Assembly (NCBI GenBank): GCA_002069945.1
Contig: MWCH01000002.1
Coordinates: forward strand, 79,164-143,163
Source: Microgenomates group bacterium ADurb.Bin219
Lineage (GTDB): Bacteria; Patescibacteriota; Microgenomatia; UM-FILTER-40-11
DNA length: 64,000 nt
Reading direction: 5' to 3'
Part shown: in pieces, positions 25,714 through 44,194 of the stretch
Numbering within the stretch: position 1 is the first letter of the stretch
Layout of the letters: each line of letters starts with the position of its first letter
Position numbers and translations under genes: made by a program
Notes under the pieces: model-generated
Told to the model about the DNA's origin: nothing
The model's input: the letters and a program-made list of their open reading frames with translations, nothing else
Database searches by the model: none

Positions 25714-26859
25714 TTGATGAAAATACAAATTCTTCAGGAAAATTTGATTAAAGCTTTAAATACCGCTTCCCGATCAATCTCCGCCAAGGCCCAATTGCCT
25801 GTATTGGCCAATATCTTGATTTCCAGCGACAACAACCAATTGAAAATCAGCGCCACCAATTTAGAGATGGGCGTTAACCTTTGGTTGGGAGCCAAAGTTG
25901 AAGGCGAAGGTTCGGTGACTTTGCCGGCTAAAGTTTTTCAGGAGTATATTGCTTCTCTTCCGCCGGGAAAAATTGATCTGGAAATTAAAGAAAACACGGT
26001 TGAGCTTTCTTCCGGCTCTTATACCGCTTCTTTTAACGGCATCTCGGCCAAAGAGTTTCCTTTATTACCCTTACCGGAAAAGAAAATTTTTACTTTTCCC
26101 GCTAAAGTTTTGACGGAAGTAATTGCGCAAGTTGCTTTTGCTTCGGCTACCGATGAAGGTCGGCCGATTTTAACCGGAGTTTATATCAAAAAAGAAGGCC
26201 AATATCTTTCTTTTGCCGCCACCGACGGCTATCGCCTTTCGGTTAAAAAGATTGCCGGAGAAAAACCGAAAGAAAAAGACGAGATAAAAGAAGAAGAGGA
26301 GACTAAAAATTTGGTTATTCCCGCCCGGACTTTATTGGAAGTTTCCCGAATTATTGCCGACCAGGGAAGTTCTGAAGATACGGTAGTGGAAATGAGTTTG
26401 ACCAAAGACAATAACCAAGCTATCTTTTCCGTTGCCGGAACGGAATTGTCTACCCGGTTGTTGGAAGGCGAATTCCCGGATTACGAAAAAATTATTCCCG
26501 GTCCAAGCGATAGCGAAGTGTCTTTGGATAAAGAGACTTTTAATAAGGCCATTAAAACCGCTTCTATTTTTGCCCGTGATTCCGCTAATATAGTTAGGCT
26601 AAATTTCAAAGAAGGAAAATTAACGGTTTCGGCCAATTCGCCTCAGGTTGGCGAAAACAAAAGCGAGATGGAAGTTAAGATAAATAACGGCGGCGGCGAG
26701 ATTGCCTTCAACTTCCGCTTTTTACTGGATTTTTTAAATTCTATTGAAAGCGAGGAGATTCTTTTCGGGATGACCGGGCCTCTTAATCCCGGAAGTTTCA
26801 AAATAAAAGACGATCCTTCTTTCCTTCATGTAATTATGCCGGTGAGGTTGCAAAGTTAA
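25714..26859 (+). CDS. dnaN: DNA polymerase III beta sliding clamp
   Basis: Three-domain clamp architecture; N-terminus MKIQILQENLIKALNTASRSIS; conserved dnaA-dnaN synteny. Confidence 0.9.
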   Translation: MMKIQILQENLIKALNTASRSISAKAQLPVLANILISSDNNQLKISATNLEMGVNLWLGAKVEGEGSVTLPAKVFQEYIASLPPGKIDLEIKENTVELSSGSYTASFNGISAKEFPLLPLPEKKIFTFPAKVLTEVIAQVAFASATDEGRPILTGVYIKKEGQYLSFAATDGYRLSVKKIAGEKPKEKDEIKEEEETKNLVIPARTLLEVSRIIADQGSSEDTVVEMSLTKDNNQAIFSVAGTELSTRLLEGEFPDYEKIIPGPSDSEVSLDKETFNKAIKTASIFARDSANIVRLNFKEGKLTVSANSPQVGENKSEMEVKINNGGGEIAFNFRFLLDFLNSIESEEILFGMTGPLNPGSFKIKDDPSFLHVIMPVRLQS

Positions 26860-27275
26860 GGCTCTATTTTCCAGATAATTTCATGGGTAGCCGGATCAAT
26901 GCCTTTTTCTTTTACCCAATTTAAGGTTTCTTGGCGGTTGGCTAAAGTATCGGATTTTAAAATAATTTCCAAAGTTAGAGGCTTAAGATAGTCAATTTGC
27001 CAGTTTTTGCTTTTATAGGGAATATAATCAAAAAGAGGGTAATCTCTCTGAATTTCTTTCCGGATTTGCAAAGGAGCGTCAAGGTCTCCCTCGGGAGTCA
27101 TAATTTTTGGTGTCGGCGAAGGAAATAACATTGGCGAAGGCGCAGGAGAAGGGGGAAGGATAATCTTTTCCTGGCTTTTGTCGGTAGTCAGGATAATTTT
27201 CAAACCCAGCAATAACCCGGCGATAATCGCCAGAATCAGAATAAAACGGCTGGTTTTATTTTTAAAAAGATTCAT
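26856..27275 (-). CDS. Hypothetical membrane-anchored protein (N-terminal TM, Pro-rich linker)
   Basis: TM FILILAIIAGLLLGLKIIL followed by PSPAPSPMLFPSPTPK linker; 4 nt overlap with the upstream CHAP gene, suggesting co-transcription. Confidence 0.4.
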   Translation of the reverse strand: MNLFKNKTSRFILILAIIAGLLLGLKIILTTDKSQEKIILPPSPAPSPMLFPSPTPKIMTPEGDLDAPLQIRKEIQRDYPLFDYIPYKSKNWQIDYLKPLTLEIILKSDTLANRQETLNWVKEKGIDPATHEIIWKIEP

Positions 27276-28174
27276 TTGTATCTTAAAAAACCCTGATAAT
27301 TGGTAACAGCGTCATCACTTAAGAATATTTGGCCGGTAGCTCCCCAAGCCTGAGCAACAATAATCTTGGTCTTTCCTTTTGTTTCTACAATAATGCCAAT
27401 ATGACCATATTGGGTGCTGTTTCTTACTGCCAAATCGCCAGGTTTAAGGTCATTGGCGTCGGCTGTTTTAATTTTAGTATAGTTATCGGGGCAACTGCCG
27501 TTTCCGAAAAAATCCTTGGCATTGCCGCAACTTGCCAATAGATGACCAATCGAGGCTTCAATTCCCTTGACGAAGCCGACACATTGCAAATTACCGGCAT
27601 AATCACCGGTTAGATCCACTGATTTTTTAAATTCGTTTCGGATAAGTTCCGAGTTGGGGAAAGGACCAGCCAAAAGACATTTTTCCGTTGTTCCCCAGTT
27701 AGATAAAGTGACTTCCGTTATTTCCTGAGAACAGGCGGCACTGTTGACTTTAATGCCTTCTTTTAGCCAACAAATAACTTCTTCGGCTTTGTGCCTTGTT
27801 TTTTGGCATTGGGGAGGAGAAGTGATGACTTTAACCAGGGTTTTTTGGGAAATAGGAATTTGTTTTACACCAACAAAGTCGGCGAAGCCGGCAGTGATGG
27901 TTATTGCCGCCATTATCGGCAAGAAAAAAAAGACGCCAATACCGATAAGAACAAATTTAGTGGTATTGTCCTTTTCTTTTTCTTGGGGCTTGGCCGAACG
28001 GAGAAAGTCAAGAGCTTTTACTGCCTTGGGTAATTTAGTAGCTAAACTGGTTCCTCCCGTGACAATCGGCAAAAGAACATTCTCGGCCGCGAAGCGGACA
28101 ACTCTTCCGGCTGTTTGTAAAGAAGAATCAAGGGTATTTTTAACGGAATTTTCTTCAGCCATTGTCTTTGACAA
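27272..28174 (-). CDS. Membrane-anchored CHAP-domain peptidoglycan hydrolase (VirB1-functional analogue of Gram-positive-type T4SS)
   Basis: TM FVLIGIGVFFFLPIMAAITITAGF; C-terminal CHAP-like Cys/His block (NLQCVGFVKG ... GDLAVRNSTQYGHIGIIVE); overlaps the VirB4-like gene start. Confidence 0.6.
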   Translation of the reverse strand: MSKTMAEENSVKNTLDSSLQTAGRVVRFAAENVLLPIVTGGTSLATKLPKAVKALDFLRSAKPQEKEKDNTTKFVLIGIGVFFFLPIMAAITITAGFADFVGVKQIPISQKTLVKVITSPPQCQKTRHKAEEVICWLKEGIKVNSAACSQEITEVTLSNWGTTEKCLLAGPFPNSELIRNEFKKSVDLTGDYAGNLQCVGFVKGIEASIGHLLASCGNAKDFFGNGSCPDNYTKIKTADANDLKPGDLAVRNSTQYGHIGIIVETKGKTKIIVAQAWGATGQIFLSDDAVTNYQGFLRYK

Positions 28175-30179
28175 TCTCCGCCTTTAATCTTATTGCCGGT
28201 TGATTGGTTTTTGGTGGTTGATCGGCAGCTGGTGTCGGTATTTGTTCTATAACCGGTTTAATAGTCTCTTTTTTCTGGCTATCAACACTTTCGGTCTGAC
28301 TGCTGGCCGCTGACGACTGATTACTGACTGCCGATTGTTGATTGTTGTCAGCTTCTTTCTGACCAGCAGCTGATGACTGATTGCTGGCCTCCTGCTGTTT
28401 TAAAACATCCTTTGGGCTACTCGAAACCAAAAGATGTTCGTCTGGAGAAGCAACTACCTTAATCGCAACGTGGTTAAGTCCGGCAAAAAACAAACCCTCT
28501 CCGATATCGGCGGACAAAAGCATCTGTCTTTCTCCTTCGGAAAGATAAAAAACCTCGGCGATTTTATCGATCGCGGCCGGATGTTGTTTCATTAAAATCT
28601 GGATGGAAGAATTGGTGATAATCGCTTTCCCGAGGTCGGTAGAGAGAAAATCTTCAACGTTTTGGGAAATCGTCGTCAGACCGAGATAATATTTTCTGGC
28701 TCTTTTAGCGATGGAATTGATAAAATTGGCCGAATCCGGATATTTCATCAGATACCAGGCTTCATCAACAATTAAAACCCGTTTTTTAAGGTCACGGCGA
28801 ACCCTGGTCCAGATATAATCAAGAATAATAAACATTGCGATCGGCCTTAAAGTTTCTTCCAAATCGCGGATCGCAAAAACCGTAAAAGGATTTTTAATAT
28901 CAATATTGGATTTTTGATCAAAGATTCCGGTTAATGAGCCTTTGATAAACTTTTCAATTTTATCGGCCAAAGATTTGGCCTGGGGTTCTTCCATCCCAAT
29001 AAGGGTTTTGTAAAGGTCTTCCATCAGAGGCGGTTCGTTTTTTTGGCTGGCCGGATCGGGAGTAATTCCCTTCATTTTATAGGTGGCTACCAAAGCCCGG
29101 TCCAAAATTGCTTCCTGGGTGGAATCCAACTCGCCCATGATTACCTTAAAAAGAGAATGAAGCGACAAAAGCTTTAATCCCAGTTCGTTTTCTCCTTCGC
29201 TGTATACCTGGGAAAGATCAAAGGGGTTAATTTTGGTTTTGGAATTAAAGCCAAAACTGATAAATTCTCCGCCGACCGCCTCGCAAAGTGATTTGTATTC
29301 GTTTTCCGGATCAATAATGATGATTTCCGTTCCGAACATTAAAGAACGTAGAGCTTCCAATTTAACCAGATAGCTTTTGCCGGCGCCCGATTTGGCGAAA
29401 ATGACGGAATTGGCATTTTCCAAGGAAAAGCGGTCAAAAACAACCAAAGAATCGTTGTGTTGGTTGATTCCGTAAAGGATGCCTTCGTTGGCGGTCAATT
29501 CCGAAGAGGTGAAAGGAAAAGTTGTTCCCAGAGAAGTTGTATCCATATTTCGGGTAAAAAGAAGAGCGTCCTGACAAATCGGCAATGTTGATTTAAAACC
29601 GTTTTCCACCTCGCTTAAAGCGGTATTCTTGGTAATAATCATCAGCGCGCCGAGAGTTGACTCTATTTGTTTAGTAGTATGGTTAAGCTCTTCTAAAGAA
29701 TCGGCCGGAATAGTTATATACAAGGCAAATTGGAAAAACCTCTCTATTCCTTTAACCAGATCCTGTTGTAAAACCAGAGCGTCTTCCAGCTTAGCTTGGG
29801 TTGCCGGATTAATCATCACCCCCCGGCCGACATCCATGTTGATTTCCGCCTGCATCTCGGCAATTTTTCTTCTGAGATCGTCCAAAACTCCCTTGCCTTC
29901 GATTGGATAAATAAACATGGAAACTTCCAACGAATGGTCAAAGTTGATTAAAGGCGCCAGCCAGTTGGCGGAAACATAACGGGGGTATCCGACCACGAAA
30001 AGAGTCCGATAAAAACGGTTATTGATTTTTAAATAATCAAAATCAACTTCAATGGCCGCCGGAGCGACCAAATCCAAAACAGAAGTATTCCCTTGATTTG
30101 CAGGAACTTGCTTTGTTTCAACGGTTTTTGCCGGCGAACCGGATTGATTTTTTTTAAGGATGGGCAGGTTAAATTTCAT
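28155..30179 (-). CDS. VirB4/TrbE/CagE-family type IV secretion ATPase with Ser/Gln-rich C-terminal tail
   Basis: Walker A FAKSGAGKSYL, Walker B RVLIVDEAWYLM, VirB4-type C-terminal domain (LGLTTISQNVEDF); low-complexity tail SNQSSAAGQKEADNNQQSAVSNQSSAASSQTE. Confidence 0.8.
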   Translation of the reverse strand: MKFNLPILKKNQSGSPAKTVETKQVPANQGNTSVLDLVAPAAIEVDFDYLKINNRFYRTLFVVGYPRYVSANWLAPLINFDHSLEVSMFIYPIEGKGVLDDLRRKIAEMQAEINMDVGRGVMINPATQAKLEDALVLQQDLVKGIERFFQFALYITIPADSLEELNHTTKQIESTLGALMIITKNTALSEVENGFKSTLPICQDALLFTRNMDTTSLGTTFPFTSSELTANEGILYGINQHNDSLVVFDRFSLENANSVIFAKSGAGKSYLVKLEALRSLMFGTEIIIIDPENEYKSLCEAVGGEFISFGFNSKTKINPFDLSQVYSEGENELGLKLLSLHSLFKVIMGELDSTQEAILDRALVATYKMKGITPDPASQKNEPPLMEDLYKTLIGMEEPQAKSLADKIEKFIKGSLTGIFDQKSNIDIKNPFTVFAIRDLEETLRPIAMFIILDYIWTRVRRDLKKRVLIVDEAWYLMKYPDSANFINSIAKRARKYYLGLTTISQNVEDFLSTDLGKAIITNSSIQILMKQHPAAIDKIAEVFYLSEGERQMLLSADIGEGLFFAGLNHVAIKVVASPDEHLLVSSSPKDVLKQQEASNQSSAAGQKEADNNQQSAVSNQSSAASSQTESVDSQKKETIKPVIEQIPTPAADQPPKTNQPAIRLKAEIVKDNG

Positions 30180-31036
30180 GGGGTTTGTTTGGCGCTAATT
30201 TCTATTGGCGGAAAAACTTGGCCTTTCAGTTCAACTTTAATTATATCAAACTCCAAACCTTCCTTTTCCGGATAGAGGGTATAGACACCGTCCGGTAAAG
30301 GAGTGGCAATCCGGAATTGGCCCAATTTATTGGAACGGAGGGCTCTGACCGCCAGATCGTGAACATCTTTAATTTCCAAAATTACTCCGTCAATCAATTT
30401 TCCCTGCTTGTCCTTAATGACACCGTTAATAATATTAGGCAAGTCGGTAAAGAAGGGGCTGACTTTTCCCTTAGCCATTACCGGAGCAACCGCGGCGATC
30501 CTTTCTTCCAAATTGGCCGGTTTTACTTCCAGACCGTTAAGCTTTTCAATCCGGGGTTTGATTATCGGCCCGCTGGCAAAAAGAGATTGGATGTTTTGCA
30601 AAAAATCTTCTTCTTTGCGGTTATTATTGGTAGCCGATATCGGCGAACTGGCTAAATTAGGGCTTTCCCGGACCGTGGTTGCCGGCGGAACGGATGGTGT
30701 TACCGGAGAAGTTGGCGTTGTCGGCAGAGATTGGGGAGGGGGAGTCAGGTCTTTCTTTTTCCAGATGTATTGGGTAGGAGAGAAGATTGCCTTAAAAAAG
30801 GAAATAATCCAGACATCAAGAGGTCTTTCATTAATCGGCAAGAAGGCCAAACCGGCGCCCAAAAGAACAAAAAACCCGACCGCCGCGTATTTGATCAAAG
30901 ACGGCAGATCCAGGCCGTAAAAAACCAAAGCAACCAAACAACAGGCGGCCAATTTGGCAAATTGCCTTAAGGTCATATTTCCGATTAAACGGAATTCATA
31001 TGACGAAATAGGTTGTGGGACAGGATGTTGTTCCAA
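30176..31036 (-). CDS. Two-TM membrane protein (VirB3/PrgI-like position) fused to Pro/Thr-rich linker and a carboxypeptidase-regulatory-like beta-sandwich domain
   Basis: Two TMs (LAACCLVALVFYGL; AAVGFFVLLGAGLAFL) directly upstream of VirB4, as VirB3/PrgI in conjugative T4SS; linker TPPPQSLPTTPTSPVTPSVPPATT; C-terminal GVIKDKQGKLIDGVILEIKD ... GQFRIATPLPDGVYTL. Confidence 0.4.
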   Translation of the reverse strand: MEQHPVPQPISSYEFRLIGNMTLRQFAKLAACCLVALVFYGLDLPSLIKYAAVGFFVLLGAGLAFLPINERPLDVWIISFFKAIFSPTQYIWKKKDLTPPPQSLPTTPTSPVTPSVPPATTVRESPNLASSPISATNNNRKEEDFLQNIQSLFASGPIIKPRIEKLNGLEVKPANLEERIAAVAPVMAKGKVSPFFTDLPNIINGVIKDKQGKLIDGVILEIKDVHDLAVRALRSNKLGQFRIATPLPDGVYTLYPEKEGLEFDIIKVELKGQVFPPIEISAKQTP

Positions 31037-31386
31037 TGTGTAAAGCGCAGTTCAGAGCACATAGTTCATAGCTCAGAGAAACTATACTTGATGCGCTGGC
31101 CTCCTTTCTCAAAATTTTTCATTAAATTTGATGAACAAAAAAAATCTTTGTAACTATTCATTTCTTTCGTCTTCTATATCTCGCAATATGCCTATGTACT
31201 TCATTCTTAGTAATACATAACAACAACGATGCTCTCTGTACTATGTTCTATGCTACTGTGCTTTGCACAATCCTTCAAGATTAACAAAGTAGAACAAATA
31301 TATACTCCTCTTAATCAAGTTGAGAGAAGGAAAGAGGATGAAAAAACAGGGTTTTTCTGGAAGAAGGGTGGTATAATATAGGCAAG

Positions 31387-33234
31387 GTGAAAAATATGGC
31401 AGAAGGGGAACCAAAAGGAGTAATAGATAAATCCAAAACAGGAACTGCCTCGGAGGATAAAGGAAAAATTACGGGAATTAATCCTGGATTGGAAGCGCAG
31501 CTAAGAATTACAGAAGTACTTGCAGCCCTTCCCCCAGAGCAAAGGGGCAATTTTTTAAAGATCTTGGATAAAGAAGGTTCCATTTCGTCGGAAGGCGACA
31601 GAAGTAATAAAAGAATAAATCGTTCACTTGAAGATCTTACTGACGAAGACGAACAAGAAAGAGAAGCTTATAAATATTTACCACCAAATATTGCCGAAGT
31701 TGGGATTCCTGCCTTTACAAAAGAGTTTAACGATAGATTGTACGATTTAATAGAGAAACAACAGACTCGCAGTTTTGATGAAGATCGGCATCTTGTCTAC
31801 CCCCTTGAGATGATGATCAGGTCGTTGTGGCCGAGCAAAAGTTACAGGAAGTATAAAGGCCCAGATGGTGTTTATAGAGTAAAAGATACAAGTGAGATTA
31901 TTGATTTTGAAAAAATCCGCAAAGAATTAACAGATAAATTAAATGCCTATCGTTCCTGCCATAATGGAATCTATCTTTACCGAGACGCTGAACAAGCCGC
32001 ATCTTTAATAAGAGTTGCTCAATATTTTAAAGAAAATGTAGAAGCAGAGCTGTCAAGGAATGAGGAAATTAATAGAGCTTTTCAAAAAATAGCTTCAATC
32101 TTAGAAGACGACATCGAAGATAAGGACGTGAGACAGAAAAAAATTTCCGATTTAACTTCAATTGCTGGATTAGACAAAGATATTCCACTGTGGGCATTTA
32201 GAATGGCAAGTGGCTTAATTTGTATTTATAACGAAGCGGCAAGAGCTGATATTTCAATTAATCAAGCTGGAGATTTTTTTCAAAACAGACTTTTTAATAT
32301 GGGAAATCGTGCGGCGATTAATTGGGAAAAGATGGGGAGAGATCCAAATCCTGAATTTTGCCAATCTCTTGATTTGCGACTAAAAACCCTTTGGCAAAAG
32401 AGAATTGAGAGTCGACTGGAGAAATTAATAAAGGAAACAATGGAAGCGGAGACAGAGGTGGATAATTTAAAAAAGAGAATTGAGCTTGAAAAAGATGAAA
32501 ATAAAAAGAAAGAGCTGAAAAATAAGAAGGAGGAAATTGAGAAGAAGATTAGAGTTTCTAAAAAAGATGAAATTCTTAGAGAATTAGCGAATAAGTTTAG
32601 GGAGTATGGAATCGAATTGTCTGGCTTAACTTTTACGGACGCAGAAAAATCAAACGAAATCAATTTTGAAAAGTATTCATTAAAAAAGATTAATCTTAAG
32701 AAAATTAGTGAGGAGGATTTTTTCCAGCTCAAAAACTCTCAAGATAATGTTAAATTGCAATATTTGGATTTAGCCGACGCAGATGGAGTGAGAAAAGCAA
32801 TTTTTGATCCGACGGGATATTTGGATATGCCTAGTCCTTCCACTTTAGTAGGAATAGAAAAAGTAATGAAGCATCTCAAAGATAAAAAAAGAGCTGCGTG
32901 GTTTACAGGTGTTATTACAGAATTAGTAGGCCTTTATAAAAGTAATAAAAATTGGGTCAATGGTTTAGTTAACAATGAGGCTAAAAAATTTTTTGCCGGG
33001 GCTCCTGTTTTGGATGAAGAAGCAATTATTCGTCTCGTTAAATCTTATAGCCCTTATATTTCAGAGGAAAATATCGATCAAATTTTAATAGAGGCAATAG
33101 GGAAAAATAGAAAAGATATCGAGAACGAAGAAAAGATTAAATTTATTTTTGCTTTATTACTCGAAGCTCTCAAAGAATCTTTTAACGCCTCGTTGGCTTC
33201 CGAAGGAATCAAGATGGGGGGTTCCAAAAAATAA
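31387..33234 (+). CDS. Hypothetical Lys/Glu-rich coiled-coil protein
   Basis: 615 aa, highly charged, long predicted coiled-coil (EAETEVDNLKKRIELEKDENKKKELKNKKEEIEKKIRVSKKDE); no TM; only plus-strand gene inside the minus-strand T4SS-like cluster. Confidence 0.5.
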   Translation: MKNMAEGEPKGVIDKSKTGTASEDKGKITGINPGLEAQLRITEVLAALPPEQRGNFLKILDKEGSISSEGDRSNKRINRSLEDLTDEDEQEREAYKYLPPNIAEVGIPAFTKEFNDRLYDLIEKQQTRSFDEDRHLVYPLEMMIRSLWPSKSYRKYKGPDGVYRVKDTSEIIDFEKIRKELTDKLNAYRSCHNGIYLYRDAEQAASLIRVAQYFKENVEAELSRNEEINRAFQKIASILEDDIEDKDVRQKKISDLTSIAGLDKDIPLWAFRMASGLICIYNEAARADISINQAGDFFQNRLFNMGNRAAINWEKMGRDPNPEFCQSLDLRLKTLWQKRIESRLEKLIKETMEAETEVDNLKKRIELEKDENKKKELKNKKEEIEKKIRVSKKDEILRELANKFREYGIELSGLTFTDAEKSNEINFEKYSLKKINLKKISEEDFFQLKNSQDNVKLQYLDLADADGVRKAIFDPTGYLDMPSPSTLVGIEKVMKHLKDKKRAAWFTGVITELVGLYKSNKNWVNGLVNNEAKKFFAGAPVLDEEAIIRLVKSYSPYISEENIDQILIEAIGKNRKDIENEEKIKFIFALLLEALKESFNASLASEGIKMGGSKK

Positions 33235-33260: not shown

Positions 33261-34856
33261 TCAAGGAGATCTAAAGGCTCCACCAAGAATAGCTTTTGCT
33301 GTTCCTTCGGCTTGCTCTTTTGATATTGCAGCTCCTATTTTTTCTCTATCTCTTATATACTCAAAGGGTCCAATTCCTTTTTCTTTTGTGAAATTATAAA
33401 TATTCTGGGCGGTACCAGGTAGCCACCCAGCCTGTTCGGCTAATAAATTTGGACCTTTCTTGTATTTTTCGTCAAAGAGTTTTTTTACTGTTTCCGGGAT
33501 TTTATTGATATAGAGCAAAAGACCAAAGCTAATCAAGAAAGAAAATACTGAACCGAACTGTCCGCTACTGGCGAGCAATGGAGGCCCCCAAAGATTATTT
33601 AAATTGATATTGTCGGTAATCCCCTTGGCAATTATTAAATAACCGGCAATCGCCGGAAAAATCAAAAGATCAGAAAGCAAGTCGGTTATCCACTTGCCGA
33701 TTCCTCCGGATTTTGAGCCTGGAAGAGCGCTCATCATTAAGAGAATAGGAGAGAGAATGATGTTTATAATCACGCTGATATAAGCGCTTAAAAGACTTAA
33801 AAACAATTTAAAAAGAACAACGACGATAAGACACCCCAAAACAAGAACTCCGATACCAGCTCCGAGTCCAGTTATAGAAAGGGAAACAAGACTAGCGGAT
33901 AAACCACTTATTGTTCCAACTATTCCTCCTCCGAGAATACTAAGGAGGGCCCCGTCTCTTAAAACCAATCCGAAAATGGAACTAATTACTTCAGAGAAAC
34001 CATTGTTGATGAAAATATTTTGGACGTATCCAATTTCGTCAATCTTAACCAATCCGCTTATTCCGGAAACAACAACTGCCAGATTAATTAGTACATAGAC
34101 CATATCAATTAAAAAACCGGCAATTGCGTAGGAAAAAGTGACAGCAATTAGAGAAACAATAATTCCCGGTAAGGCGTTTTCTATGGTAATTACAGCCTGG
34201 GGAGAAATTTTTTTCCTGAACATTATCATTAAGCCAGTAAAGATAAAAATCAAAATATAAAAAACGTAGGCCATATTTTTAAAGGCGTTCCAAAGAGGTA
34301 AAATTGGCTGTAATCCTTTAGCTCCAATTCCTGTTTGGGCGTAGGCGGAAGGAATTCCCAAATTTTTTTTCAGACCGGCGAGATAATCAATTCCCGAGGC
34401 GGGAGGTTTAAGATAAAGAGATGCAATCAAATTTGAGGCTAGAGATATCGCGCCACCTGAAGGGAGAGAGCTCACTCCACTTTGACCGACTGAGGTCTTT
34501 CCAATAAGACTTAAACTTGCACTGTTAATCAGATTGTTGAAAATCCGAACAGAAAATCTTTGGTCCGAAACTTCCTCCTCTGGAAGATCGTAATATTCTT
34601 TTTGAAATTCTATTAAAGATTGTGGCTCAAACCAATATTTGCTTTGACGATTTTCAACACAAACGCTGGAAACACAAAGCCAATCCTCTGGGTTTTTACC
34701 ATAAAGAGTAACGCAGTCATTTTCGTTTTTACAATCTTGAACATAGCCCGCAGTTACAGAAGCATGGACTTTTAAGGAGAAATTTATTGAAAAATAAAAA
34801 AGAAGTAAAAGTAAAAAAAGAAAAAAATTTTTTTTAGAAAAACTTTGGGCAGACAT
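33261..34856 (-). CDS. Polytopic membrane protein, VirB6/TrbL-like by topology and context, with Cys-containing N-terminal extracytoplasmic domain
   Basis: Signal/TM FFLFLLLLLFYFSINFSL, Cys-rich ecto-region (CKNENDCVTLYGKNPEDWLCVSSVC), then at least 7 Gly-rich TM helices; part of the VirB4 cluster. Confidence 0.45.
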   Translation of the reverse strand: MSAQSFSKKNFFLFLLLLLFYFSINFSLKVHASVTAGYVQDCKNENDCVTLYGKNPEDWLCVSSVCVENRQSKYWFEPQSLIEFQKEYYDLPEEEVSDQRFSVRIFNNLINSASLSLIGKTSVGQSGVSSLPSGGAISLASNLIASLYLKPPASGIDYLAGLKKNLGIPSAYAQTGIGAKGLQPILPLWNAFKNMAYVFYILIFIFTGLMIMFRKKISPQAVITIENALPGIIVSLIAVTFSYAIAGFLIDMVYVLINLAVVVSGISGLVKIDEIGYVQNIFINNGFSEVISSIFGLVLRDGALLSILGGGIVGTISGLSASLVSLSITGLGAGIGVLVLGCLIVVVLFKLFLSLLSAYISVIINIILSPILLMMSALPGSKSGGIGKWITDLLSDLLIFPAIAGYLIIAKGITDNINLNNLWGPPLLASSGQFGSVFSFLISFGLLLYINKIPETVKKLFDEKYKKGPNLLAEQAGWLPGTAQNIYNFTKEKGIGPFEYIRDREKIGAAISKEQAEGTAKAILGGAFRSP

Positions 34857-37980: not shown

Positions 37981-38346
37981 TTATTGCCCGGTAACAATCT
38001 CAAAATTAAGAACATCAACGCCGGTAAATTCCTTAATCAAAAGAAAGATAATCCAGGCGCCGAGAATCACAACCAATCCGATAATGGCGTAAGTTAAAGT
38101 CTGTTGGGCTGCCTGGGATTTTTTGGGATCTCCGCCGCTGGTTAAATATTTAAAGCCGCCGACCAGAAACATTAAAAAAAGCGCAATTCCGGCAAAACGA
38201 ACAACAATATTCAAAATGTTGGCAAAAATACACTCAAATCCTTTAATGGTAGCGACCTTAATTGGGTCGCCGCCGCCGGGAGGAGTAATTTCGGTATAAC
38301 AGCCGGTTTTCCAGTCTTGAGCCAATAAAATCTTTTCTGCCGCCAT
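37981..38346 (-). CDS. Pilin-like two-TM protein, paralog 1 (VirB2/TrbC-type topology)
   Basis: TM1 FLMFLVGGFKYL, loop TSGGDPKKSQAAQQ, TM2 LTYAIIGLVVILGAWIIFLLI; shares [ST]-[GA]-G-D-x-K ... I-x-x-A-[LI]-I-G core with 7 neighbours. Confidence 0.6.
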   Translation of the reverse strand: MAAEKILLAQDWKTGCYTEITPPGGGDPIKVATIKGFECIFANILNIVVRFAGIALFLMFLVGGFKYLTSGGDPKKSQAAQQTLTYAIIGLVVILGAWIIFLLIKEFTGVDVLNFEIVTGQ

Positions 38347-38399
38347 AAAATTATTTCTTCCCTTAACGAAACCTTTTTCTTGATTTTTCTAAAGGTAAG

Positions 38400-38762
38400 T
38401 TATTTCGGTGTCGGAATACTAATCGGACCGCTGATTACTGTTATTTTGAAGAATTTTTCCAAAATAAGCATAATTGCCCAGGACGCGGCGACAATTCCCA
38501 ATCCGATTAAGGCGTTGGTAATTTGTTTGCCGGCCGCTTCGGTCTTTTTTGAATCACCGCCGGACATAATCCATTGCAAACCACCGAGCAGTAAATAGAA
38601 AAAGGTTGCCAGAGCGGCAATGGTCATCAATAATCTGACAAGAGCGCTGATAACCGAGCCCAAATCCGTCCAACCGACACCCGGTTCCGCAACTTGCGAC
38701 AAAGGAATTCCCGAAATTTGTTGAGCTTGTGCAATCAAATTAAAAAAACTAACTCCTAACAT
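38400..38762 (-). CDS. Pilin-like two-TM protein, paralog 2
   Basis: LLGGLQWIMSGGDSKKTEAAGKQITNALIGLGIVAASWAI conserved core. Confidence 0.6.
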   Translation of the reverse strand: MLGVSFFNLIAQAQQISGIPLSQVAEPGVGWTDLGSVISALVRLLMTIAALATFFYLLLGGLQWIMSGGDSKKTEAAGKQITNALIGLGIVAASWAIMLILEKFFKITVISGPISIPTPK

Positions 38763-38867
38763 TTATTTTTTGTTTTTCACCCCCTTTTATTTTATATTTA
38801 TTTTTTTAATTGTTACCTAAAGACCAGTGTATTTTTTAAAAACATTCGTGTCAATAAGTAAGAAAGA

Positions 38868-39191
38868 TTAAAGGGTGGGAATAATAAATCCGGAACCGAG
38901 GATATCCAAACCGACAACAATACCGACAACTTTAATAATTGCCCAGGCGCTAAAAAGAATTATCATGCCGATAATGGCGCCGGAAATTTGTTTCCCTGCC
39001 GCCTCCGCCCGTTTTGAATCTCCACCACTGGTAATCCACATTACCCCTCCCCAGACAAGATAAAAGATCAAGGCAATTGAACCGATAATCATAAAAGCCC
39101 TAACAAAAACGACGATTGCCTTCGGCAGCCATTCGCCGACGGTTTTGTCTTTAGAATTGGGGATTAAGGGATTATAAATTTGTTTAGCCAT
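38868..39191 (-). CDS. Pilin-like two-TM protein, paralog 3
   Basis: LVWGGVMWITSGGDSKRAEAAGKQISGAIIGMIILFSAWAI conserved core. Confidence 0.6.
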   Translation of the reverse strand: MAKQIYNPLIPNSKDKTVGEWLPKAIVVFVRAFMIIGSIALIFYLVWGGVMWITSGGDSKRAEAAGKQISGAIIGMIILFSAWAIIKVVGIVVGLDILGSGFIIPTL

Positions 39192-39194
39192 AAA

Positions 39195-39674
39195 TTATTT
39201 CCAAATATTTTTTAAAAATTCAAAAGGATTAAGAAGTTCAATTCCCAAAACCATTCCTACTAATTCAATGATAAAAATCGCGGAAACAACAATGACCAGG
39301 CCGATTAAAGAATTGGTAATTTGTTTTTGAGCTCCTTCTATGGATTTTTGGTCGCCGCCGGCCGTAATCCACTTTAAAGCAGCGGTAAAAAATTGAAGGA
39401 TAAAGTAAAGAAAGGCAAAAAGAGTAATCAGGCCGATTCCGATAGAAATGATCCTGTTTAAAAGATCCAAAGGTAAAGTAATATTTGTGCCGATTAGGTT
39501 CTTGAAATTTTCACCTAAAGGACCTAGCCCTTCAAGACGGCCCAGCTCTTTTGCACCGGGAGCCAAAGTTGGCGTTTGAGAATAAGCAGGCTTAGAAAAA
39601 CCCGTAATCAAAAATAAGAAAAAGGTAAAAGCAAAAAAATTTTTATTGAAAAATGTTTTTCTATTGTGGCCCAT
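39195..39674 (-). CDS. Pilin-like two-TM protein, paralog 4 (with cleavable-looking signal peptide and longer N-terminal region)
   Basis: Signal FFAFTFFLFLITGFSKPAYSQ; core AALKWITAGGDQKSIEGAQKQITNSLIGLVIVVSAIFI. Confidence 0.6.
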   Translation of the reverse strand: MGHNRKTFFNKNFFAFTFFLFLITGFSKPAYSQTPTLAPGAKELGRLEGLGPLGENFKNLIGTNITLPLDLLNRIISIGIGLITLFAFLYFILQFFTAALKWITAGGDQKSIEGAQKQITNSLIGLVIVVSAIFIIELVGMVLGIELLNPFEFLKNIWK

Positions 39675-40086
39675 AAATTTTTGGATTCAAAATGGCAGTA
39701 GCATCGCCGAAAACAATAAAGCCGATAATCGCAGCCGTAACCAGAGAGCCGGCCATAATTACCAAACCGACTACCGAGTAAATAATTTTATTGGTAGCTT
39801 GCTCTATTTTTTTGGAATCGCCGCCTGCGGAGATATAAGTTAGACCGGCCAATAAAATGTTAACAAAAGTAAAGATGCCACCGCCCACAATAAGAAGTTT
39901 TATTAAAACATTGGCAAAGCCGATTAATCCTCCTTTGCCGCCAACCCCAATATCTCCCCATTTTTCAACTCCGGGCGGCGGAGAAATTTTTCCGATGACA
40001 TCGGCAATATCGGCAATGAGCAGTTTTTCCGTCATTTTCCCAAGATATTTAAGCCGGTAACTATTTGAATAATTTGAATTATCCAA
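39661..40086 (-). CDS. Pilin-like two-TM protein, paralog 5 (true start more likely the internal Met at 40035, giving an ATGA overlap with the next paralog)
   Basis: Core LLAGLTYISAGGDSKKIEQATNKIIYSVVGLVIMAGSL; the 40086 start would overlap paralog 6 by 55 nt. Confidence 0.55.
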   Translation of the reverse strand: MDNSNYSNSYRLKYLGKMTEKLLIADIADVIGKISPPPGVEKWGDIGVGGKGGLIGFANVLIKLLIVGGGIFTFVNILLAGLTYISAGGDSKKIEQATNKIIYSVVGLVIMAGSLVTAAIIGFIVFGDATAILNPKIYGPQ

Positions 40087-40367
40087 TAGCTGGCAAAAAT
40101 AATGCCAAACCCGACCAAAGCAGAGGTGACCGCCTGCTGGCCCTGAGAAGTTTTTTTCGGGTCACCCCCTCCAGCTCCCATAATAATGCCGAGGCCTCCG
40201 AATAACAAGAGGAAAAACAAGAGAACCCCGGCCAAAATAAAAGCGTTTTTTAAAAAAATGGAAACAAGACCACCTAAAGATTGATATTCCGTTACTCTAC
40301 CGATCGGAACAGAAGGTTTGAGCAAAAGTTCATCGCCGATGTTAACGGCAGACAAAAGGTCAGACAT
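40032..40367 (-). CDS. Pilin-like two-TM protein, paralog 6
   Basis: Core FGGLGIIMGAGGGDPKKTSQGQQAVTSALVGFGIIFASYWI. Confidence 0.6.
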   Translation of the reverse strand: MSDLLSAVNIGDELLLKPSVPIGRVTEYQSLGGLVSIFLKNAFILAGVLLFFLLLFGGLGIIMGAGGGDPKKTSQGQQAVTSALVGFGIIFASYWIIQIIQIVTGLNILGK

Positions 40368-40519
40368 AGTTTAATAATAACACTACATTAGTGCAAAGCG
40401 CAAAATACAGAGAACAGAGGTTAGAGGGTGGAGTAAAAGAAGAAGCGAAGGATTAATTGTGTTTTTCCGACTCAATATTTAGCGAAAATTATAATTTTTT
40501 ATGCTAGAATGCTTTCAAA

Positions 40520-41785
40520 ATGAAGGATAAAAAAGAAAAAAATTTACCTGAAGGAACTTTGGTTCCTAACCATTTGGCGATAATTTGTGACGGCAACCGG
40601 CGTTGGGCGAGAGCGAGGGGGAAACCGGCTTTTGAAGGCCACCGGCGCGGTTTTGATATTACCCCTTCACTTTCCCGGGCTTGCCGCGATTTTGGAATTC
40701 ATACTTTAACCTTTTGGGTTTTTTCAACGGAAAATTGGGACCGGCCTAAAGAAGAAATTGCTTTTTTGATGAAGAAATTTGAAGAATTTATTGATGTTCA
40801 TCTTAAAGAAGCCAAAAAAAGCGAAGTTCGGATAATTCACTTGGGACGGAAAGACCGGATTCCTTCTTCTTTGGCAAAAAAAATTATTAAGGCAGAGAAA
40901 GAAACAAAAGAAAACAAGAAATTCGTTTTAAATATTGCCTTGGATTACGGCGGCCGGGATGAAATTTTAAGGGCAATCGGAAAAATGACTGGAGAAAAAT
41001 TAACCAAAGAAAGTTTAAGTGAAGAAACCTTTCAAAAGTATTTGGACACCGGTTCCCAACCATTTCCCTATCCTGATTTGATTATCAGGCCTTCGGGCGA
41101 ACAAAGGACAAGCGGGCTTTTAATTTGGCAGGGAGCTTACAGCGAAACTTATTGGCTTCCTGATCATTTCCCGGAGTTAACCCCGGAAATTTTAAAAGAA
41201 GCTTTAATAGATTTTTCCAAAAGAAGGCGCCGTTTCGGCGGCAACGATAACGTTCCCCGCGTTAAGTTTTCTCCGGAAAAACTGGCCAAGTTGGAGAGCG
41301 TCTATTTACAAGAGGGCGATTGGGAGAATCAGGAAAAAAAGGAAGAAAAAATCGGGAATTGGTTAAAAGAGCTTTACGGTCTAGATCTCCAAAATTCTTC
41401 GTCCGCGGCCCAATTCTATTGTGAAGGGTTAATTCTTGCCGGAAAGGAAGATTGGGCCAAGGCAGAAGAAAAAATGAAAGATTTTTATCAAATAATTAAG
41501 GAAGCAACCGGTTATGTTTTTAGCCCGGAAGCGGTCGCCAAATTGGAAGTTGATTTAAAAAAGACCGAAAAGAAAACCAGGGAGAGCTTGGATAAAGCTG
41601 AATTGGAAAAAGCCTTGCGGAATTATTACGGCGAGATTTACCGGCTTTCCGACCTGCAATCGCGGCGGACGGCTTATTATAAAACCCTGGCGATAACAGC
41701 TTTTAATTCGGCCGGAGACAATTCGGCGACAGCAGAAAAATATTTGGTTAAAACCTACGAGACACTTCGTGAAGTTGCTTCCTAA
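40520..41785 (+). CDS. uppS: Undecaprenyl-diphosphate synthase (cis-prenyltransferase) fused to a ~180 aa C-terminal helical domain of unknown function
   Basis: UppS motifs HLAIICDGNRRWA, FWVFSTENWDRPKEEI, LNIALDYGGRDEI, IRPSGEQRTSGLLIWQGAYSE in the first ~240 aa; 421 aa total. Confidence 0.8.
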   Translation: MKDKKEKNLPEGTLVPNHLAIICDGNRRWARARGKPAFEGHRRGFDITPSLSRACRDFGIHTLTFWVFSTENWDRPKEEIAFLMKKFEEFIDVHLKEAKKSEVRIIHLGRKDRIPSSLAKKIIKAEKETKENKKFVLNIALDYGGRDEILRAIGKMTGEKLTKESLSEETFQKYLDTGSQPFPYPDLIIRPSGEQRTSGLLIWQGAYSETYWLPDHFPELTPEILKEALIDFSKRRRRFGGNDNVPRVKFSPEKLAKLESVYLQEGDWENQEKKEEKIGNWLKELYGLDLQNSSSAAQFYCEGLILAGKEDWAKAEEKMKDFYQIIKEATGYVFSPEAVAKLEVDLKKTEKKTRESLDKAELEKALRNYYGEIYRLSDLQSRRTAYYKTLAITAFNSAGDNSATAEKYLVKTYETLREVAS

Positions 41786-41802
41786 GGTATAATATTTTTG
41801 CT

Positions 41803-42321
41803 GTGGTTTCGGAAAATACTTCTATCGATAAAGCGACGTTAAACCGTCTGAAACAATATATCGCCAAAAGGGTCCATCAGCCGGAAGAGGCGGAGGAAAT
41901 TTTTCAGGATGTTTTGGTTGATACGGTTGACAGTCTGCCTCTTTTTCGCGGAGAATCAGCTCTTTTTACTTTCATTTGCGGGATTGCGAACCATACGATT
42001 GTTGATTATTACCGGAAAAAGAAATTAAAGACGCTTCTTTTTTCCCGATTCCCTTTTTTAGAGGAAGTCGCTTCTCAAGCTCTCGGACCGGACGAAAAAT
42101 TGGAAAAGGAAGAATTGAGAAAGGAGGTGAAAATTGTTTTGGCTGCCCTGAGCGAAGGATATCGGGAGGTTTTGCGACTTAAATATATAGACGGAATGAC
42201 CGTCAACCAAATTGCCAAGAAATTCAATACAAGCTTTAAGTCGGTTGAATCAAAATTATCAAGGGCACGCAGTTCGTTCAGAAAAATTTGGTTGATTGGT
42301 AAATCAAAATTTAAAATTTAA
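41803..42321 (+). CDS. ECF-type RNA polymerase sigma factor
   Basis: Region 2 (EEAEEIFQDVLVDTVDSL ... IANHTIVDYYRKK) and region 4 HTH (LRLKYIDGMTVNQIAKKFNTSFKSVESKLSRARSSFRK). Confidence 0.75.
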   Translation: MVSENTSIDKATLNRLKQYIAKRVHQPEEAEEIFQDVLVDTVDSLPLFRGESALFTFICGIANHTIVDYYRKKKLKTLLFSRFPFLEEVASQALGPDEKLEKEELRKEVKIVLAALSEGYREVLRLKYIDGMTVNQIAKKFNTSFKSVESKLSRARSSFRKIWLIGKSKFKI

Positions 42322-42727
42322 AATGAAAAATTACAATTCAAAATTAAAAATTAAAGAAGCGTCGGGAAAGATCTTCAAGACAATTTTTTTATTAGTAATT
42401 CGCGAATTTTATCTTTTTTTTAGAAATATATACGGTTTGGCTTGTCATCCTTTCTTGACGATAAGGAGGATTAGAAGAGAAAAAGATTATTTTCAGGTTT
42501 TATTGGTTTTTGGACTGCCGGTATATTTTTGGCTCGCCGCCATTGTCTCTTTGGCGGTTTTAAGATTTTTAATTGGGATTAGGGGCAGGTTGGGTTGGAT
42601 TGCTCATTCTTTACTTTGGTTGGTTTCCGGTCTTACGGGCTTAATTTGCTTTTATCTTTTTTATTGGCTTTGGTTAACTTATTTTAATCAGAAAAAAATC
42701 AAAGAAGGAGGCCAAAGTGCCGGTTGA
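42296..42727 (+). CDS. Hypothetical membrane protein (3 TM), possible cognate anti-sigma/partner of the ECF sigma
   Basis: Overlaps the sigma gene end; TMs VLLVFGLPVYFWLAAIVSLAVL, IAHSLLWLVSGLTGLICFYLFYWLWL. Confidence 0.35.
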   Translation: MVNQNLKFKMKNYNSKLKIKEASGKIFKTIFLLVIREFYLFFRNIYGLACHPFLTIRRIRREKDYFQVLLVFGLPVYFWLAAIVSLAVLRFLIGIRGRLGWIAHSLLWLVSGLTGLICFYLFYWLWLTYFNQKKIKEGGQSAG

Positions 42728-42962
42728 AAAAGGTAACTATTCGGCTCGGTATTGGCGAGGGCAAAAGGAAAGGTATTCTTTGGTTGGACCGGAAATCCAT
42801 TTGCCTAATCCCGGAGACTTAGTCGTTTTTCAAGGCCAGCCTTTTCATTTGGAAGATGAAGGCAAGACTTTGAGGGCTTTTGGGGAGGAGGAAAAAAGAA
42901 AGTTTGTTTTAAAGAACACCTCAAAAATCTATAAGCTATCACACAACGAGGTTAAGAGATGA
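42717..42962 (+). CDS. Hypothetical small protein
   Basis: 81 aa ORF overlapping the previous gene by 11 nt; no recognisable motifs. Confidence 0.3.
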   Translation: MPVEKGNYSARYWRGQKERYSLVGPEIHLPNPGDLVVFQGQPFHLEDEGKTLRAFGEEEKRKFVLKNTSKIYKLSHNEVKR

Positions 42963-43277
42963 CTATTTCAAAATTGAAATTCCCAACACCACTTCAACAA
43001 TCTGGATCACCCAGTAGGAGACAAAAAGGATAAAGAAACCGACAACGGCATTGGTAATTGATTTTCCGGCACTTTCTTTCGCTTTGGGATCATTGGCTCC
43101 GGTCATCATTTGAAAACCGGCCATTATTAAAGATACAAGAAGGATAATTCCGGCAAGAACATAAACAATTTTTAATCCTTCGGAAATAATTTCACCGAGA
43201 TTTAAATCTCCTCCTAAACCGATCGCTCCCTTGGTCGGGAAGGCGCTTGCTTTAATATCGTTGAAATTAATTGCCAT
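42963..43277 (-). CDS. Pilin-like two-TM protein, paralog 7
   Basis: Core IMAGFQMMTGANDPKAKESAGKSITNAVVGFFILFVSYWVI. Confidence 0.6.
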   Translation of the reverse strand: MAINFNDIKASAFPTKGAIGLGGDLNLGEIISEGLKIVYVLAGIILLVSLIMAGFQMMTGANDPKAKESAGKSITNAVVGFFILFVSYWVIQIVEVVLGISILK

Positions 43278-43297
43278 TTTTCTTTAAATTTTAAAAT

Positions 43298-44194
43298 TTA
43301 TAAACCGGGAATTCCCAATATCTTAACTCCAATTAGTTCCAGCAAAAAGACGGAAAAAATTATAAACAATAAGCCGATCAAGGCGGAGGTGATTGTTTCT
43401 TTAGCGGCTTGAACTCCTTTGGGGTCGCCGGCAGAAGTAATTATCCGGAAACCGCCGAAGATAACCAAAAAGAAAGCGATTCCGCCGGCAACAGCAATTA
43501 TTCTTTTTAAAAGCCAGGCAGTAAATTCGCTAAAATCACCGGTTGGGATACAACCCAAGGCAGTCCAAGCGCCGCCTTTATAGTTCTTGTCTGGAGTTAC
43601 ACATTTTCTACAATCTTCGTTACATTCCCTCGGGCAATCGAAATTATCAACCTTACATCCGCAGACGTCACAATGTGGAGCAACGAGAGCATTATCTCCT
43701 CCACAAATCCAATTGCCAGTTTTTCCTGAAGTGTGAAGGCATTTACATTCTTTCGGACACGTTTGATCATTTGGTCCGGAACACGGATTTCCACAGCCGG
43801 GAGCCAAAGCCGGGATAACCCCTAAAGGACAACAACACGCATTTCCGTTTGCCACGGTAAAAGTTTTATAGATACACTGTGGATTAAGACTGGAACATGA
43901 TTTCATTGTAAATTTTACTTCTTGTCCCTGCTCACAGTACGAACCAGCAGATGTTGGACAACAGCACTGAACCTCTGTAGTAATTAACCAACCCTTTGTT
44001 GCTCCGGAACGCTTGCATCCTACAGGGCAGCTTTCGGTGGGTTTAATCCAACGCACGGTATCAGTCGAGTTACAAGAAAACGAACCGTAGGTAGTAGTCG
44101 TTATGAATGGTAGTTTAAAAAGAGGAGAAAAAATTAATAAACTAAAAATTAGAAGAATAATAAATATTATTGGGGAAATTTTAAGACATTTCAT
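43298..44194 (-). CDS. Secreted Cys-rich (about 30 Cys) domain fused to a C-terminal pilin-like two-TM module (paralog 8)
   Basis: Signal IIFIILLIFSLLIFSPLF; Cys-rich CxxC/CC-rich ecto-domain (CCCPTSAGSYCEQG ... CPKECKCLH ... CDVCGCKVDNFDCPRECNEDCRKC); C-terminal FGGFRIITSAGDPKGVQAAKETITSALIGLLFIIFSVFL. Confidence 0.6.
   Translation of the reverse strand: MKCLKISPIIFIILLIFSLLIFSPLFKLPFITTTTYGSFSCNSTDTVRWIKPTESCPVGCKRSGATKGWLITTEVQCCCPTSAGSYCEQGQEVKFTMKSCSSLNPQCIYKTFTVANGNACCCPLGVIPALAPGCGNPCSGPNDQTCPKECKCLHTSGKTGNWICGGDNALVAPHCDVCGCKVDNFDCPRECNEDCRKCVTPDKNYKGGAWTALGCIPTGDFSEFTAWLLKRIIAVAGGIAFFLVIFGGFRIITSAGDPKGVQAAKETITSALIGLLFIIFSVFLLELIGVKILGIPGL

Follow-up and report, generated by a model that had tools for sequence, protein, structure and literature searches.

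Introduction

Few machines have been shown to be indispensable to the epibiotic life of the Patescibacteria, or candidate phyla radiation (CPR), a very large and mostly uncultivated phylum; their type IV secretion system (T4SS) is one of them. Using transposon sequencing (Tn-seq), Wang et al. (2023, PMC10633639) found the T4SS of Southlakia epibionticum (SEML1_0006-0019), including its series of pilins, to be essential for epibiotic growth, and reported a system without recognisable relaxase or coupling protein. Here, we analyse a T4SS-like locus in a 64-kb stretch (hereafter, the window) of the genome of Microgenomates group bacterium ADurb.Bin219, an ultrasmall member of the Microgenomatia, in which fourteen minus-strand open reading frames (ORFs) at positions 26856-44194 encode a VirB4-family ATPase, further components of the apparatus and eight pilin-like paralogs, immediately beside dnaN and dnaA. 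The locus very probably represents a chromosomal, non-conjugative T4SS of the type that is typical of Patescibacteria.

In their survey, Quiñonero-Coronel et al. (2025, PMC12102498) placed the VirB4 proteins of Patescibacteria in a clade sister to MPF_FATA and reported PrgI/VirB3, VirB6 and TrsD components together with VirB2-like pilins, which were found with the profiles PF18895 and PF04956 in 441 arrays of 2-11 genes (mean identity 25%). The arrays occur especially in Microgenomatia and Saccharimonadia and lie near dnaA/dnaN, with almost no relaxases; VirB6 was scarce in Microgenomatia, and only 22.6% of the VirB3 homologues of that class were located near VirB4. The ortholog structure of the arrays was not discussed. 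A 2025 review (PMC12857230) repeats the findings on Patescibacteria T4SSs and speculates on a pilus conduit, and a 2026 preprint (10.64898/2026.06.21.733656) describes tubular structures at the patescibacterial host interface which, according to its authors, may be T4SS pili.

Origin-proximal, relaxase-free clusters with pilin arrays were therefore already described for Patescibacteria between 2023 and 2025, and the locus presented here is one more example. It adds nothing categorically new, and its increments for Microgenomatia are modest: a VirB6 candidate, a conserved PrgI-beta-sandwich fusion beside VirB4, a secreted glycosidase-like protein within an operon, and a set of old, ordered pilin paralogs.

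Results

The locus encodes a T4SS without relaxase or coupling protein

A preliminary description of this DNA had delimited a T4SS-like locus at the same coordinates, containing a VirB4-family ATPase, a membrane-anchored CHAP hydrolase, a VirB3-positioned protein with two transmembrane (TM) helices, a VirB6-like polytopic protein, a large secreted protein and eight small paralogs, all of which were recovered in our analysis (Table 1). Profile hidden Markov model (HMM) searches bore out the VirB4 assignment: the ATPase scored 395.7 bits against the NCBIfam model NF045971 (conju_CD1110; cutoff 325), matched the Pfam families PF19044 (P-loop_TraG, 2e-29) and AAA_10 (3e-14), and aligned with the Thermoanaerobacter VirB4 4ag5 in the PDB at 3e-50. 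With its Walker A (GAGKS) and Walker B (LIVDEAW) motifs, the protein is, as judged from these matches, a true VirB4. It also gave matches below the family cutoffs to the Mycoplasma model NF045975 (Mbov_0397, 1e-78) and to the archaeal proteins CedB (6e-15) and CedD, the latter two with scores far under the cutoffs (55 against 700 bits). The alignment to the 752-position CD1110 model begins only at position 181; the N-terminal part is therefore missing or encoded elsewhere. Its C-terminal ~75 residues form a low-complexity tail enriched in Ser, Gln and Ala.

Directly upstream of virB4 lies the gene for the VirB3-positioned protein, which we identify as PrgI/VirB3-like. The protein from the window matched PF12666 at 1.6e-5, with 25.8 bits and thus just under the gathering score of 27, and a PrgI match was obtained for 40/40 orthologs tested (best 1.6e-10). 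A Pro/Thr/Ser-rich linker joins the PrgI-like part to a CarboxypepD_reg-like beta-sandwich domain, and since CarboxypepD_reg was matched in 34 of the same 40 orthologs, we regard this arrangement as a conserved fusion. The two TM helices would place the beta-sandwich in the cytoplasm, an unusual location for a domain and a linker of this kind.

The CHAP protein contains both the Cys of a QCVGF motif and the His of a YGHIGI motif, and is predicted to be a membrane-anchored peptidoglycan hydrolase for cell-wall opening of the VirB1 type. Comparison of the CHAP protein and of the PrgI profile with PDB sequences gave nothing useful. The last protein of this operon, of 139 aa, was without match in Pfam and NCBIfam; its homologs adjoin dnaN in five related loci (L002, L010, L020, L021 and L086), and in a sixth (L111) the homolog lies downstream of VirB4 in a sequence that stops before dnaN.

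The 531-aa polytopic protein is VirB6-like by fold only. Its AlphaFold model, built with 52 homologs, has a predicted local distance difference test (pLDDT) score of 74.6, rising above 90 in the TM core; no match was obtained in Pfam (TrbL/VirB6 and PrgH included) or NCBIfam, nor with its profile against PDB sequences. Together with the PrgI synteny, this candidate may fill, for this lineage, the VirB6/VirB3 gap left by the survey (PMC12102498). General Pfam and NCBIfam scans, which included no dedicated TrsD profile, recognised no TrsD-like candidate.

Scans for relaxase and VirD4/type IV coupling protein (T4CP) families covered ORFs of at least 120 aa in the window and returned no match. This agrees with the preliminary description, which had taken the locus for a resident apparatus rather than a conjugative element, a view in line with the literature (PMC10633639, PMC12102498).

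Eight pilin-like proteins share one architecture

All eight small proteins (pil1 to pil8) matched PF18895, a family named for T4SS pilins, at E = 1e-10 to 4e-4, five of them at or above its gathering score of 26.6 bits (26.7-41.9 bits). An HMM built from the eight picks exactly these ORFs, and no others, in the 64 kb; pairwise identity among the paralogs is 23-43%. According to hydropathy, the C-terminal part of each protein is made up of two hydrophobic helices with a short connecting loop of net charge 0 to +1, and this predicted arrangement fits a VirB2-type two-helix hairpin with a basic loop. The common architecture put forward in the preliminary description was thus retained, but its sequence motifs were too strict as written: [ST]-[GA]-G-D-x-K-K occurs in 2/8 and I-x-x-A-[LI]-I-G in 3/8, whereas the more permissive versions [GAN]-D-x-K and [ILV]-x-x-[AS]-[LIV]-[IV]-G are present in 8/8.

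In the longest member, pil8, a signal peptide is followed by an ectodomain of some 200 aa and then by the pilin domain at the C-terminus. The ectodomain holds 27 Cys, with repeated CCCP and CPxxC patterns. Type-8 orthologs in L088, L112, L133 and L142 carry variable ectodomains, which differ strongly in length and Cys content (228-468 aa). For pil5, the start is most likely the ATG at 40035, which gives an ATGA overlap with the pil6 stop, rather than the TTG at 40086.

The pilin paralogs form old ortholog groups in conserved order

To place the locus among its relatives, a genome collection was scanned with VirB4, from which 80 loci with VirB4 identities of 60-76% were kept (L001-L080), and a metagenome scan with the VirB6-like family yielded 80 further loci. 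Where the titles of the VirB4 loci are informative, almost all denote metagenome-assembled genomes (MAGs) of Microgenomates/Patescibacteria, mostly Shapirobacteria, Gottesmanbacteria and other Microgenomates groups. What look like taxonomic mislabels also occur: many third-party annotation (TPA) MAGs in this set are listed as 'uncultured Gammaproteobacteria' or 'Pseudomonadales', and one as 'Nanoarchaeia'.

PrgI is found directly upstream of VirB4 in 73/80 of these loci, and dnaN downstream of VirB4, in the arrangement PrgI-VirB4-...-dnaN-dnaA, in 67/80, the exceptions being mostly contig ends. The loci of the VirB6 scan that have enough upstream DNA show 5-9 pilin genes, then a large variable gene, then the VirB6-like gene. 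Three of them (L088, L112 and L142) match the layout of the window, with spoIID, a long type-8 pilin, pil7, uppS, a six- or seven-gene array and the VirB6-like gene; L088 additionally has membrane-protein and sigma-factor genes after uppS and a detectable homolog of the 993-aa protein described below. A further locus, L086, is cut at its upstream end and shows the pil7-uppS-sigma-array part, from pil7 on.

Pilins of other loci were typed by their best-matching paralog in the window, and arrays of at least five pilins were counted for gene order. Of these arrays, 24/29 are collinear with the window, where types 6-5-4-3-2-1 follow one another and 8-7 lie upstream. Moreover, for 97% of 231 pilins the best match in a foreign locus exceeds the best paralog of the same locus, with a median identity of 59% against 39%; pil1, for example, has orthologs of up to 62% identity and 44 loci with a match that outscores its own best paralog. 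Array copy number ranges from 5 to 9, and extra copies are mainly duplications of types 2 and 3. The pilin paralogs are therefore ancient, ordered and individually conserved ortholog groups. The preliminary description had called eight subunit genes in one locus unusual, which does not hold for this phylum: arrays of 2-11 genes are published, and 5-9 is the norm in the related loci.

A modular secreted protein with a glycosidase-like barrel

Between the six-gene array and the VirB6-like gene lies the gene for a secreted protein of 993 aa, with a signal peptide, a (beta/alpha)8 (TIM) barrel of glycoside hydrolase clan A (GH-A) at residues ~30-300, a beta-rich middle region and a helical C-terminal domain (869-988). 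Its AlphaFold2 model has a pLDDT of 80. Foldseek comparison of the N-terminal domain with the PDB returned members of the families GH53, GH79, GH5, GH39 and GH30 at 1e-5 to 1e-3 with probability 1.00, and the PWNEPN motif (115-120) and E231 are invariant in 32 homologs. As modelled, the domain would be a clan GH-A glycosidase-like barrel, with the acid/base Glu in the NEP motif and a nucleophile Glu. With respect to CAZy families, there was only one weak match, to Glyco_hydro_cc, and in a homolog.

The preliminary description had correctly noted a large secreted protein in this position, but assigned it an SLT-like C-terminus, for which we obtained no confirmation; the clear enzymatic domain is the N-terminal barrel. 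The isolated C-terminus had no match in Pfam at E up to 10, and Pfam scans of 32 family members were likewise negative or uninformative. Its profile was negative against the PDB, as was its hhalign comparison with an SLT_3-bearing homolog (P0173), and in Foldseek searches of PDB and viral structures for a lysozyme-like fold the TIM barrel dominated, with no link to SLT. The C-terminus itself carries a conserved W-[IV]-E-E-[ST] motif, in which both Glu are invariant, in a domain predicted to be all-helical.

The family is modular: the GH-A domain was detected in 8 loci, against 20 for the middle region and 11 for the C-terminal domain. Its members (homologs P0122-P0193) form a mosaic in which the three domains occur in different subsets of the related loci. 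In some sister proteins the C-terminus is another module, which contains an SLT-like 'MQIE...ATGPMQ' motif and for which Pfam gave only SLT at E = 0.21 in one; P0173 terminates in Pfam SLT_3.

Operon layout and position at the replication origin

The locus comprises three transcription units: PrgI/VirB3-VirB4-CHAP-139-aa, in which overlaps of 4-20 nt between adjacent genes mark a single operon; pil6-pil1 with the 993-aa and VirB6-like genes; and pil8-pil7. The first two are separated by the plus-strand ORF of a 615-aa protein, which is the only plus-strand ORF among those first listed for the T4SS block, the rest being on the minus strand; the second and third are separated by the plus-strand genes for uppS, a sigma factor of the extracytoplasmic function (ECF) type and a protein with two TM helices. 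A search for a promoter or ECF-type motif common to the upstream regions of the three T4SS operons found none, and generic sigma-70 and terminator scans were uninformative. Pyrimidine-rich tracts upstream of pil8, pil6 and PrgI were dropped as a specific signal, with 20 such tracts across the window, many of them in coding DNA.

Immediately left of the locus, dnaN and dnaA run convergently with the T4SS operon, and further left lie rnpA, yidC and a Jag/KhpB-like gene. Because dnaA/dnaN coincide with the cumulative GC-skew minimum (24-26 kb) and with a cluster of DnaA-box-like sites (6/20 of those in the window, at 23946-25444), we place the locus at the replication origin. PDB matches for both proteins and the arrangement of the related loci bear out the earlier placement in core chromosome. 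Core genes (uppS, spoIID, rnpA and yidC) flank and interrupt the locus, whose composition is like that of its surroundings. The T4SS operons, to the immediate right of the origin (~24-26 kb), occupy the lagging strand and are transcribed towards the origin, head-on to replication; the convergent orientation of virB4 and dnaN is kept in almost all related loci that include dnaN.

Opposite-strand and neighbouring genes

The 615-aa protein was without match in Pfam and NCBIfam. A word-indexed search found 3 homologs and an exhaustive search of 1.84 billion proteins found 30 representative clusters, with a significant Pfam domain in 0/10 clusters scanned. In the metagenome loci L101, L104, L106, L114 and L121, its gene likewise follows the VirB6-like gene on the opposite strand. 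The uppS, sigma-factor and two-TM genes adjoin pilin arrays also in L086, L088, L117, L128, L136, L147 and L152. In many related loci the sigma/two-TM pair lies divergently beside the pilin array, and the pair is a candidate for a dedicated regulator of the array.

Further right in the window, a ComF-like gene, with a double zinc ribbon and a phosphoribosyltransferase domain, has tmRNA/smpB and six clustered Ser and Arg tRNA genes as neighbours. A full-length group I catalytic intron has a VIT1/rubrerythrin-like gene on one side and a large serine recombinase on the other; a surrounding host tRNA or rRNA gene was not identified.

Table 1. Features of the 64-kb window in order of position; unit, transcription unit of the T4SS locus
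Feature	Coordinates	Strand	Unit	Length (aa)	Remarks
dnaA	24041-25381	+			PDB DnaA 8btg, 4e-103
dnaN	25714-26859	+			PDB beta clamp 7ybd, 2e-52
T4SS locus	26856-44194	-	1-3		Fourteen minus-strand ORFs in three tight groups
Bitopic membrane protein	26856-27275	-	1	139	TM 11-29; last gene of operon; 4-nt overlap with CHAP gene
CHAP hydrolase (predicted)	27272-28174	-	1	300	PF05257 5e-8, residues 191-274; TM 75-93
VirB4-family ATPase	28155-30179	-	1	674	Ser/Gln-rich C-terminal tail
PrgI/VirB3-like protein	30176-31036	-	1	286	Two TM helices; ATGA overlap with virB4
Orphan protein	31387-33234	+		615	Soluble, Lys/Glu-rich; between two T4SS operons
VirB6-like polytopic protein	33261-34856	-	2	531	Signal/anchor helix and ~7 TM helices
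Secreted modular protein	34926-37907	-	2	993	BWY24_00281 (100% identity)
pil1	37981-38346	-	2	121	PF18895 1.1e-10; NF045849 (Mbov_0395, pilin-like) 7e-7
pil2	38400-38762	-	2	120	PF18895 1.5e-8; orthologs up to 63% identity
pil3	38868-39191	-	2	107	PF18895 1.1e-10
pil4	39195-39674	-	2	159	PF18895 6.7e-5, 23.3 bits; N-terminal signal-peptide-like segment
pil5	39661-40035	-	2		PF18895 5.8e-6; longest ORF to 40086
pil6	40032-40367	-	2	111	PF18895 4.2e-4, 20.8 bits; first gene of six-gene array; orthologs up to 56% identity
uppS	40520-41785	+			PF01255 2e-68
ECF-type sigma factor	41803-42321	+			Sigma70_r2, r4_2 and ECF matches
Two-TM protein	42296-42727	+			Overlaps sigma gene; possible anti-sigma factor
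pil7	42963-43277	-	3	104	PF18895 3.7e-8
pil8	43298-44194	-	3	298	PF18895 2.2e-5 at residues 232-286
ComF-like gene	50247-50948	+			~6 kb from locus
Group I catalytic intron	59641-59941	+			RF00028, gathering-level Rfam match, 64.8 bits
Large serine recombinase	59960-61564				

Discussion

Drawing on established knowledge of T4SSs, we envisage a membrane translocon that would be made up of VirB4, its VirB3-like anchor and the VirB6-like protein. The CHAP enzyme and the large secreted hydrolase would open a cell wall, be it that of the bacterium itself or of a host. The eight two-helix proteins would be inserted in the membrane with their charged loop inside, and VirB4 could extract them for polymerisation into a VirB2-like stalk or pilus. 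Such a filament or stalk would probably consist of several specialised subunits, because each paralog belongs to an ancient ortholog group in fixed order, with pil8 displaying its Cys-rich ectodomain. The machine most likely serves host-cell contact and macromolecule transfer, not conjugation.

Several points weigh against reading the locus as a pilus-bearing, non-conjugative T4SS. The only experimental support for its function, including essentiality, is by analogy with a relative in another class, S. epibionticum of the Saccharimonadia, and a pilus or secretion has so far been shown in no Microgenomatia. No VirB8-like component was recognised in the locus, and the negative result for relaxases and coupling proteins concerns the 64-kb window, so that such genes may lie elsewhere in the genome. 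Three of the small proteins stay below the PF18895 gathering score (pil4, 23.3 bits; pil6, 20.8 bits; pil8, 24.9 bits), while being clear paralogs of the others. The resemblance to VirB2/TrbC pilins seen in the preliminary description extends to the two-helix architecture but not to a sequence link with the classical diderm proteins: none of the eight matched PF04956 (TrbC) at E up to 0.1, the only trace of a classical pilin family was that of pil1 to CagC (E 0.024), and a profile of 25 pilins compared with all PDB sequences retrieved no pilin chain such as the solved VirB2, TraA or TrwL. The label 'pilin', as applied here, rests on the name of PF18895, the predicted two-helix architecture and the gene neighbourhood.

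What the paralogs build can be read in several ways. We tentatively consider it possible that the eight anciently diverged, functionally distinct subunits assemble together as a single heteropolymeric T4SS filament of a monoderm cell, with major and minor pilins and with pil8 as a tip or decorating subunit, and that this filament, together with the GH-A/lytic protein, breaches the host envelope and serves Microgenomatia as a feeding conduit. To our knowledge, conjugative pili are homopolymers of one VirB2, so that a heteropolymeric filament would, if true, be an unprecedented architecture. It is rather doubtful that the small proteins instead remain in the cytoplasmic membrane as integral channel or stalk subunits or as assembly factors of a pilus-less monoderm T4SS. 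Such an arrangement would suit the general absence of pili from monoderm MPF_FATA systems (PMC12102498, PMC12857230), the lack of detectable similarity between the pilin profile and solved pilus subunits, and the weak likeness of pil1 to a Mycoplasma integrative and conjugative element (ICE) family, NF045849, that is 'pilin-like' by name only; however, all eight proteins match PF18895 and have the predicted VirB2-type hairpin with its small basic loop, the signal peptides of pil4 and pil8 and the pil8 ectodomain fit display outside the cell, and the tubular host-interface structures of the 2026 preprint may, in the view of its authors, be T4SS pili. The preliminary description had left the choice between a heteropolymeric and a variable filament, and the ortholog analysis speaks against the latter. 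Diversification arrays, in which alternative pilins are swapped or expressed singly for antigenic or host-range variation, have been proposed for the VirB2 paralogs of Bartonella and Anaplasma. An array of that kind would accord with the low paralog identity, with the variation in copy number through duplications mainly of types 2 and 3, and with the same idea raised for Patescibacteria (PMC12102498), yet it is improbable here: nearly all pilins are closer to a foreign ortholog than to a paralog of their own locus and the type order is kept in most arrays, which is the pattern of old distinct subunits and not of fast-turnover cassettes. Since the paralogs are old, ordered and individually conserved, fixed specialised subunits are favoured over variable cassettes, and the working hypothesis shifts from variable pilins for host range towards a single filament of several subunits.

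With regard to the substrate, transfer to or from a host has to be set against two other roles. The locus could belong, as mating-pair-formation module, to a conjugative or integrative element whose relaxase and coupling protein lie outside the window, in keeping with a VirB4 that passes a conjugal-transfer ATPase cutoff (NF045971), with VirD4-like genes located far from virB4 in many Patescibacteria (PMC12102498) and with the serine recombinase in the window. We consider this very improbable in view of the position beside dnaN/dnaA kept in most related loci, the core genes that flank and interrupt the locus, its unremarkable composition, the lack of relaxase and T4CP matches in 64 kb, and the report of relaxases in only 103 Patescibacteria genomes and of a distant T4CP homologue that is non-essential in S. 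epibionticum (PMC12102498). An ICE remnant was likewise rejected on the basis of the conserved position and core-gene context. Import of DNA or nucleic acid, as by archaeal Ced/Ted or Helicobacter ComB, into a cell unable to make nucleotides was proposed by the authors of PMC12102498, and the absence of relaxase and T4CP, the sub-threshold CedB and CedD matches and the nearby ComF-like gene are all compatible with it. We nevertheless judge import unlikely, as the locus has no DNA-binding or ComEC-like component; furthermore, comEC of S. epibionticum is dispensable while its T4SS is essential (PMC10633639, PMC12857230), such that import would have to be ComEC-independent.

Comparison with known systems

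Archaeal Ced/Ted import systems share with the locus a VirB4-family ATPase without relaxase, a possible role as an import machine and the CedB/CedD matches; in contrast, the scores lie far under the cutoffs and CedA-like proteins were not recognised here. The Mycoplasma ICE genes are linked to pil1 (NF045849) and to VirB4 (NF045975), in both cases below family cutoffs, and indicate that a pilin-like two-TM protein accompanies VirB4 in at least one wall-less monoderm lineage, although these elements are mobile and have a single pilin-like gene. Diderm VirB2/TrbC/TraA pilins, including the tandems of Bartonella, Anaplasma and Rickettsia, are similarly small two-helix proteins with a short basic loop, encoded beside virB4 and as tandem paralogs, whereas the proteins described here match neither PF04956 nor solved pilins, mostly lack a classical long signal peptide, and form conserved ortholog groups rather than variable copies.

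The monoderm T4SSs of the MPF_FATA type (Prg/Pcf of pCF10, CD1110 of Clostridioides difficile CTn2, and the Thermoanaerobacter VirB4 4AG5) have in common with the locus a VirB4 that passes the CD1110 cutoff, PrgI, a CHAP-type hydrolase and no outer-membrane core. The locus differs from them in giving no match to relaxase, coupling-protein or PrgB-type adhesin families, in not being mobile, and in its VirB2-like pilins, which are absent from MPF_FATA systems. The closest counterpart is the Patescibacteria-clade T4SS, with its MPF_FATA-affine VirB4, PrgI/VirB3 and VirB6, cell-wall hydrolases downstream of virB4, tandem divergent VirB2-like pilins (PF18895), no relaxase or T4CP nearby, and location at dnaA/dnaN. 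The locus displays the VirB4 affinity, the nearby PrgI and VirB6-like genes, the PF18895 array, the lack of a relaxase and the origin-near chromosomal position that would assign it to this clade, and within the clade it is set apart by an array in which uppS and an ECF sigma factor separate six pilins from two, a Cys-rich ectodomain on one pilin, and a protein with a GH-A domain encoded within the operon.

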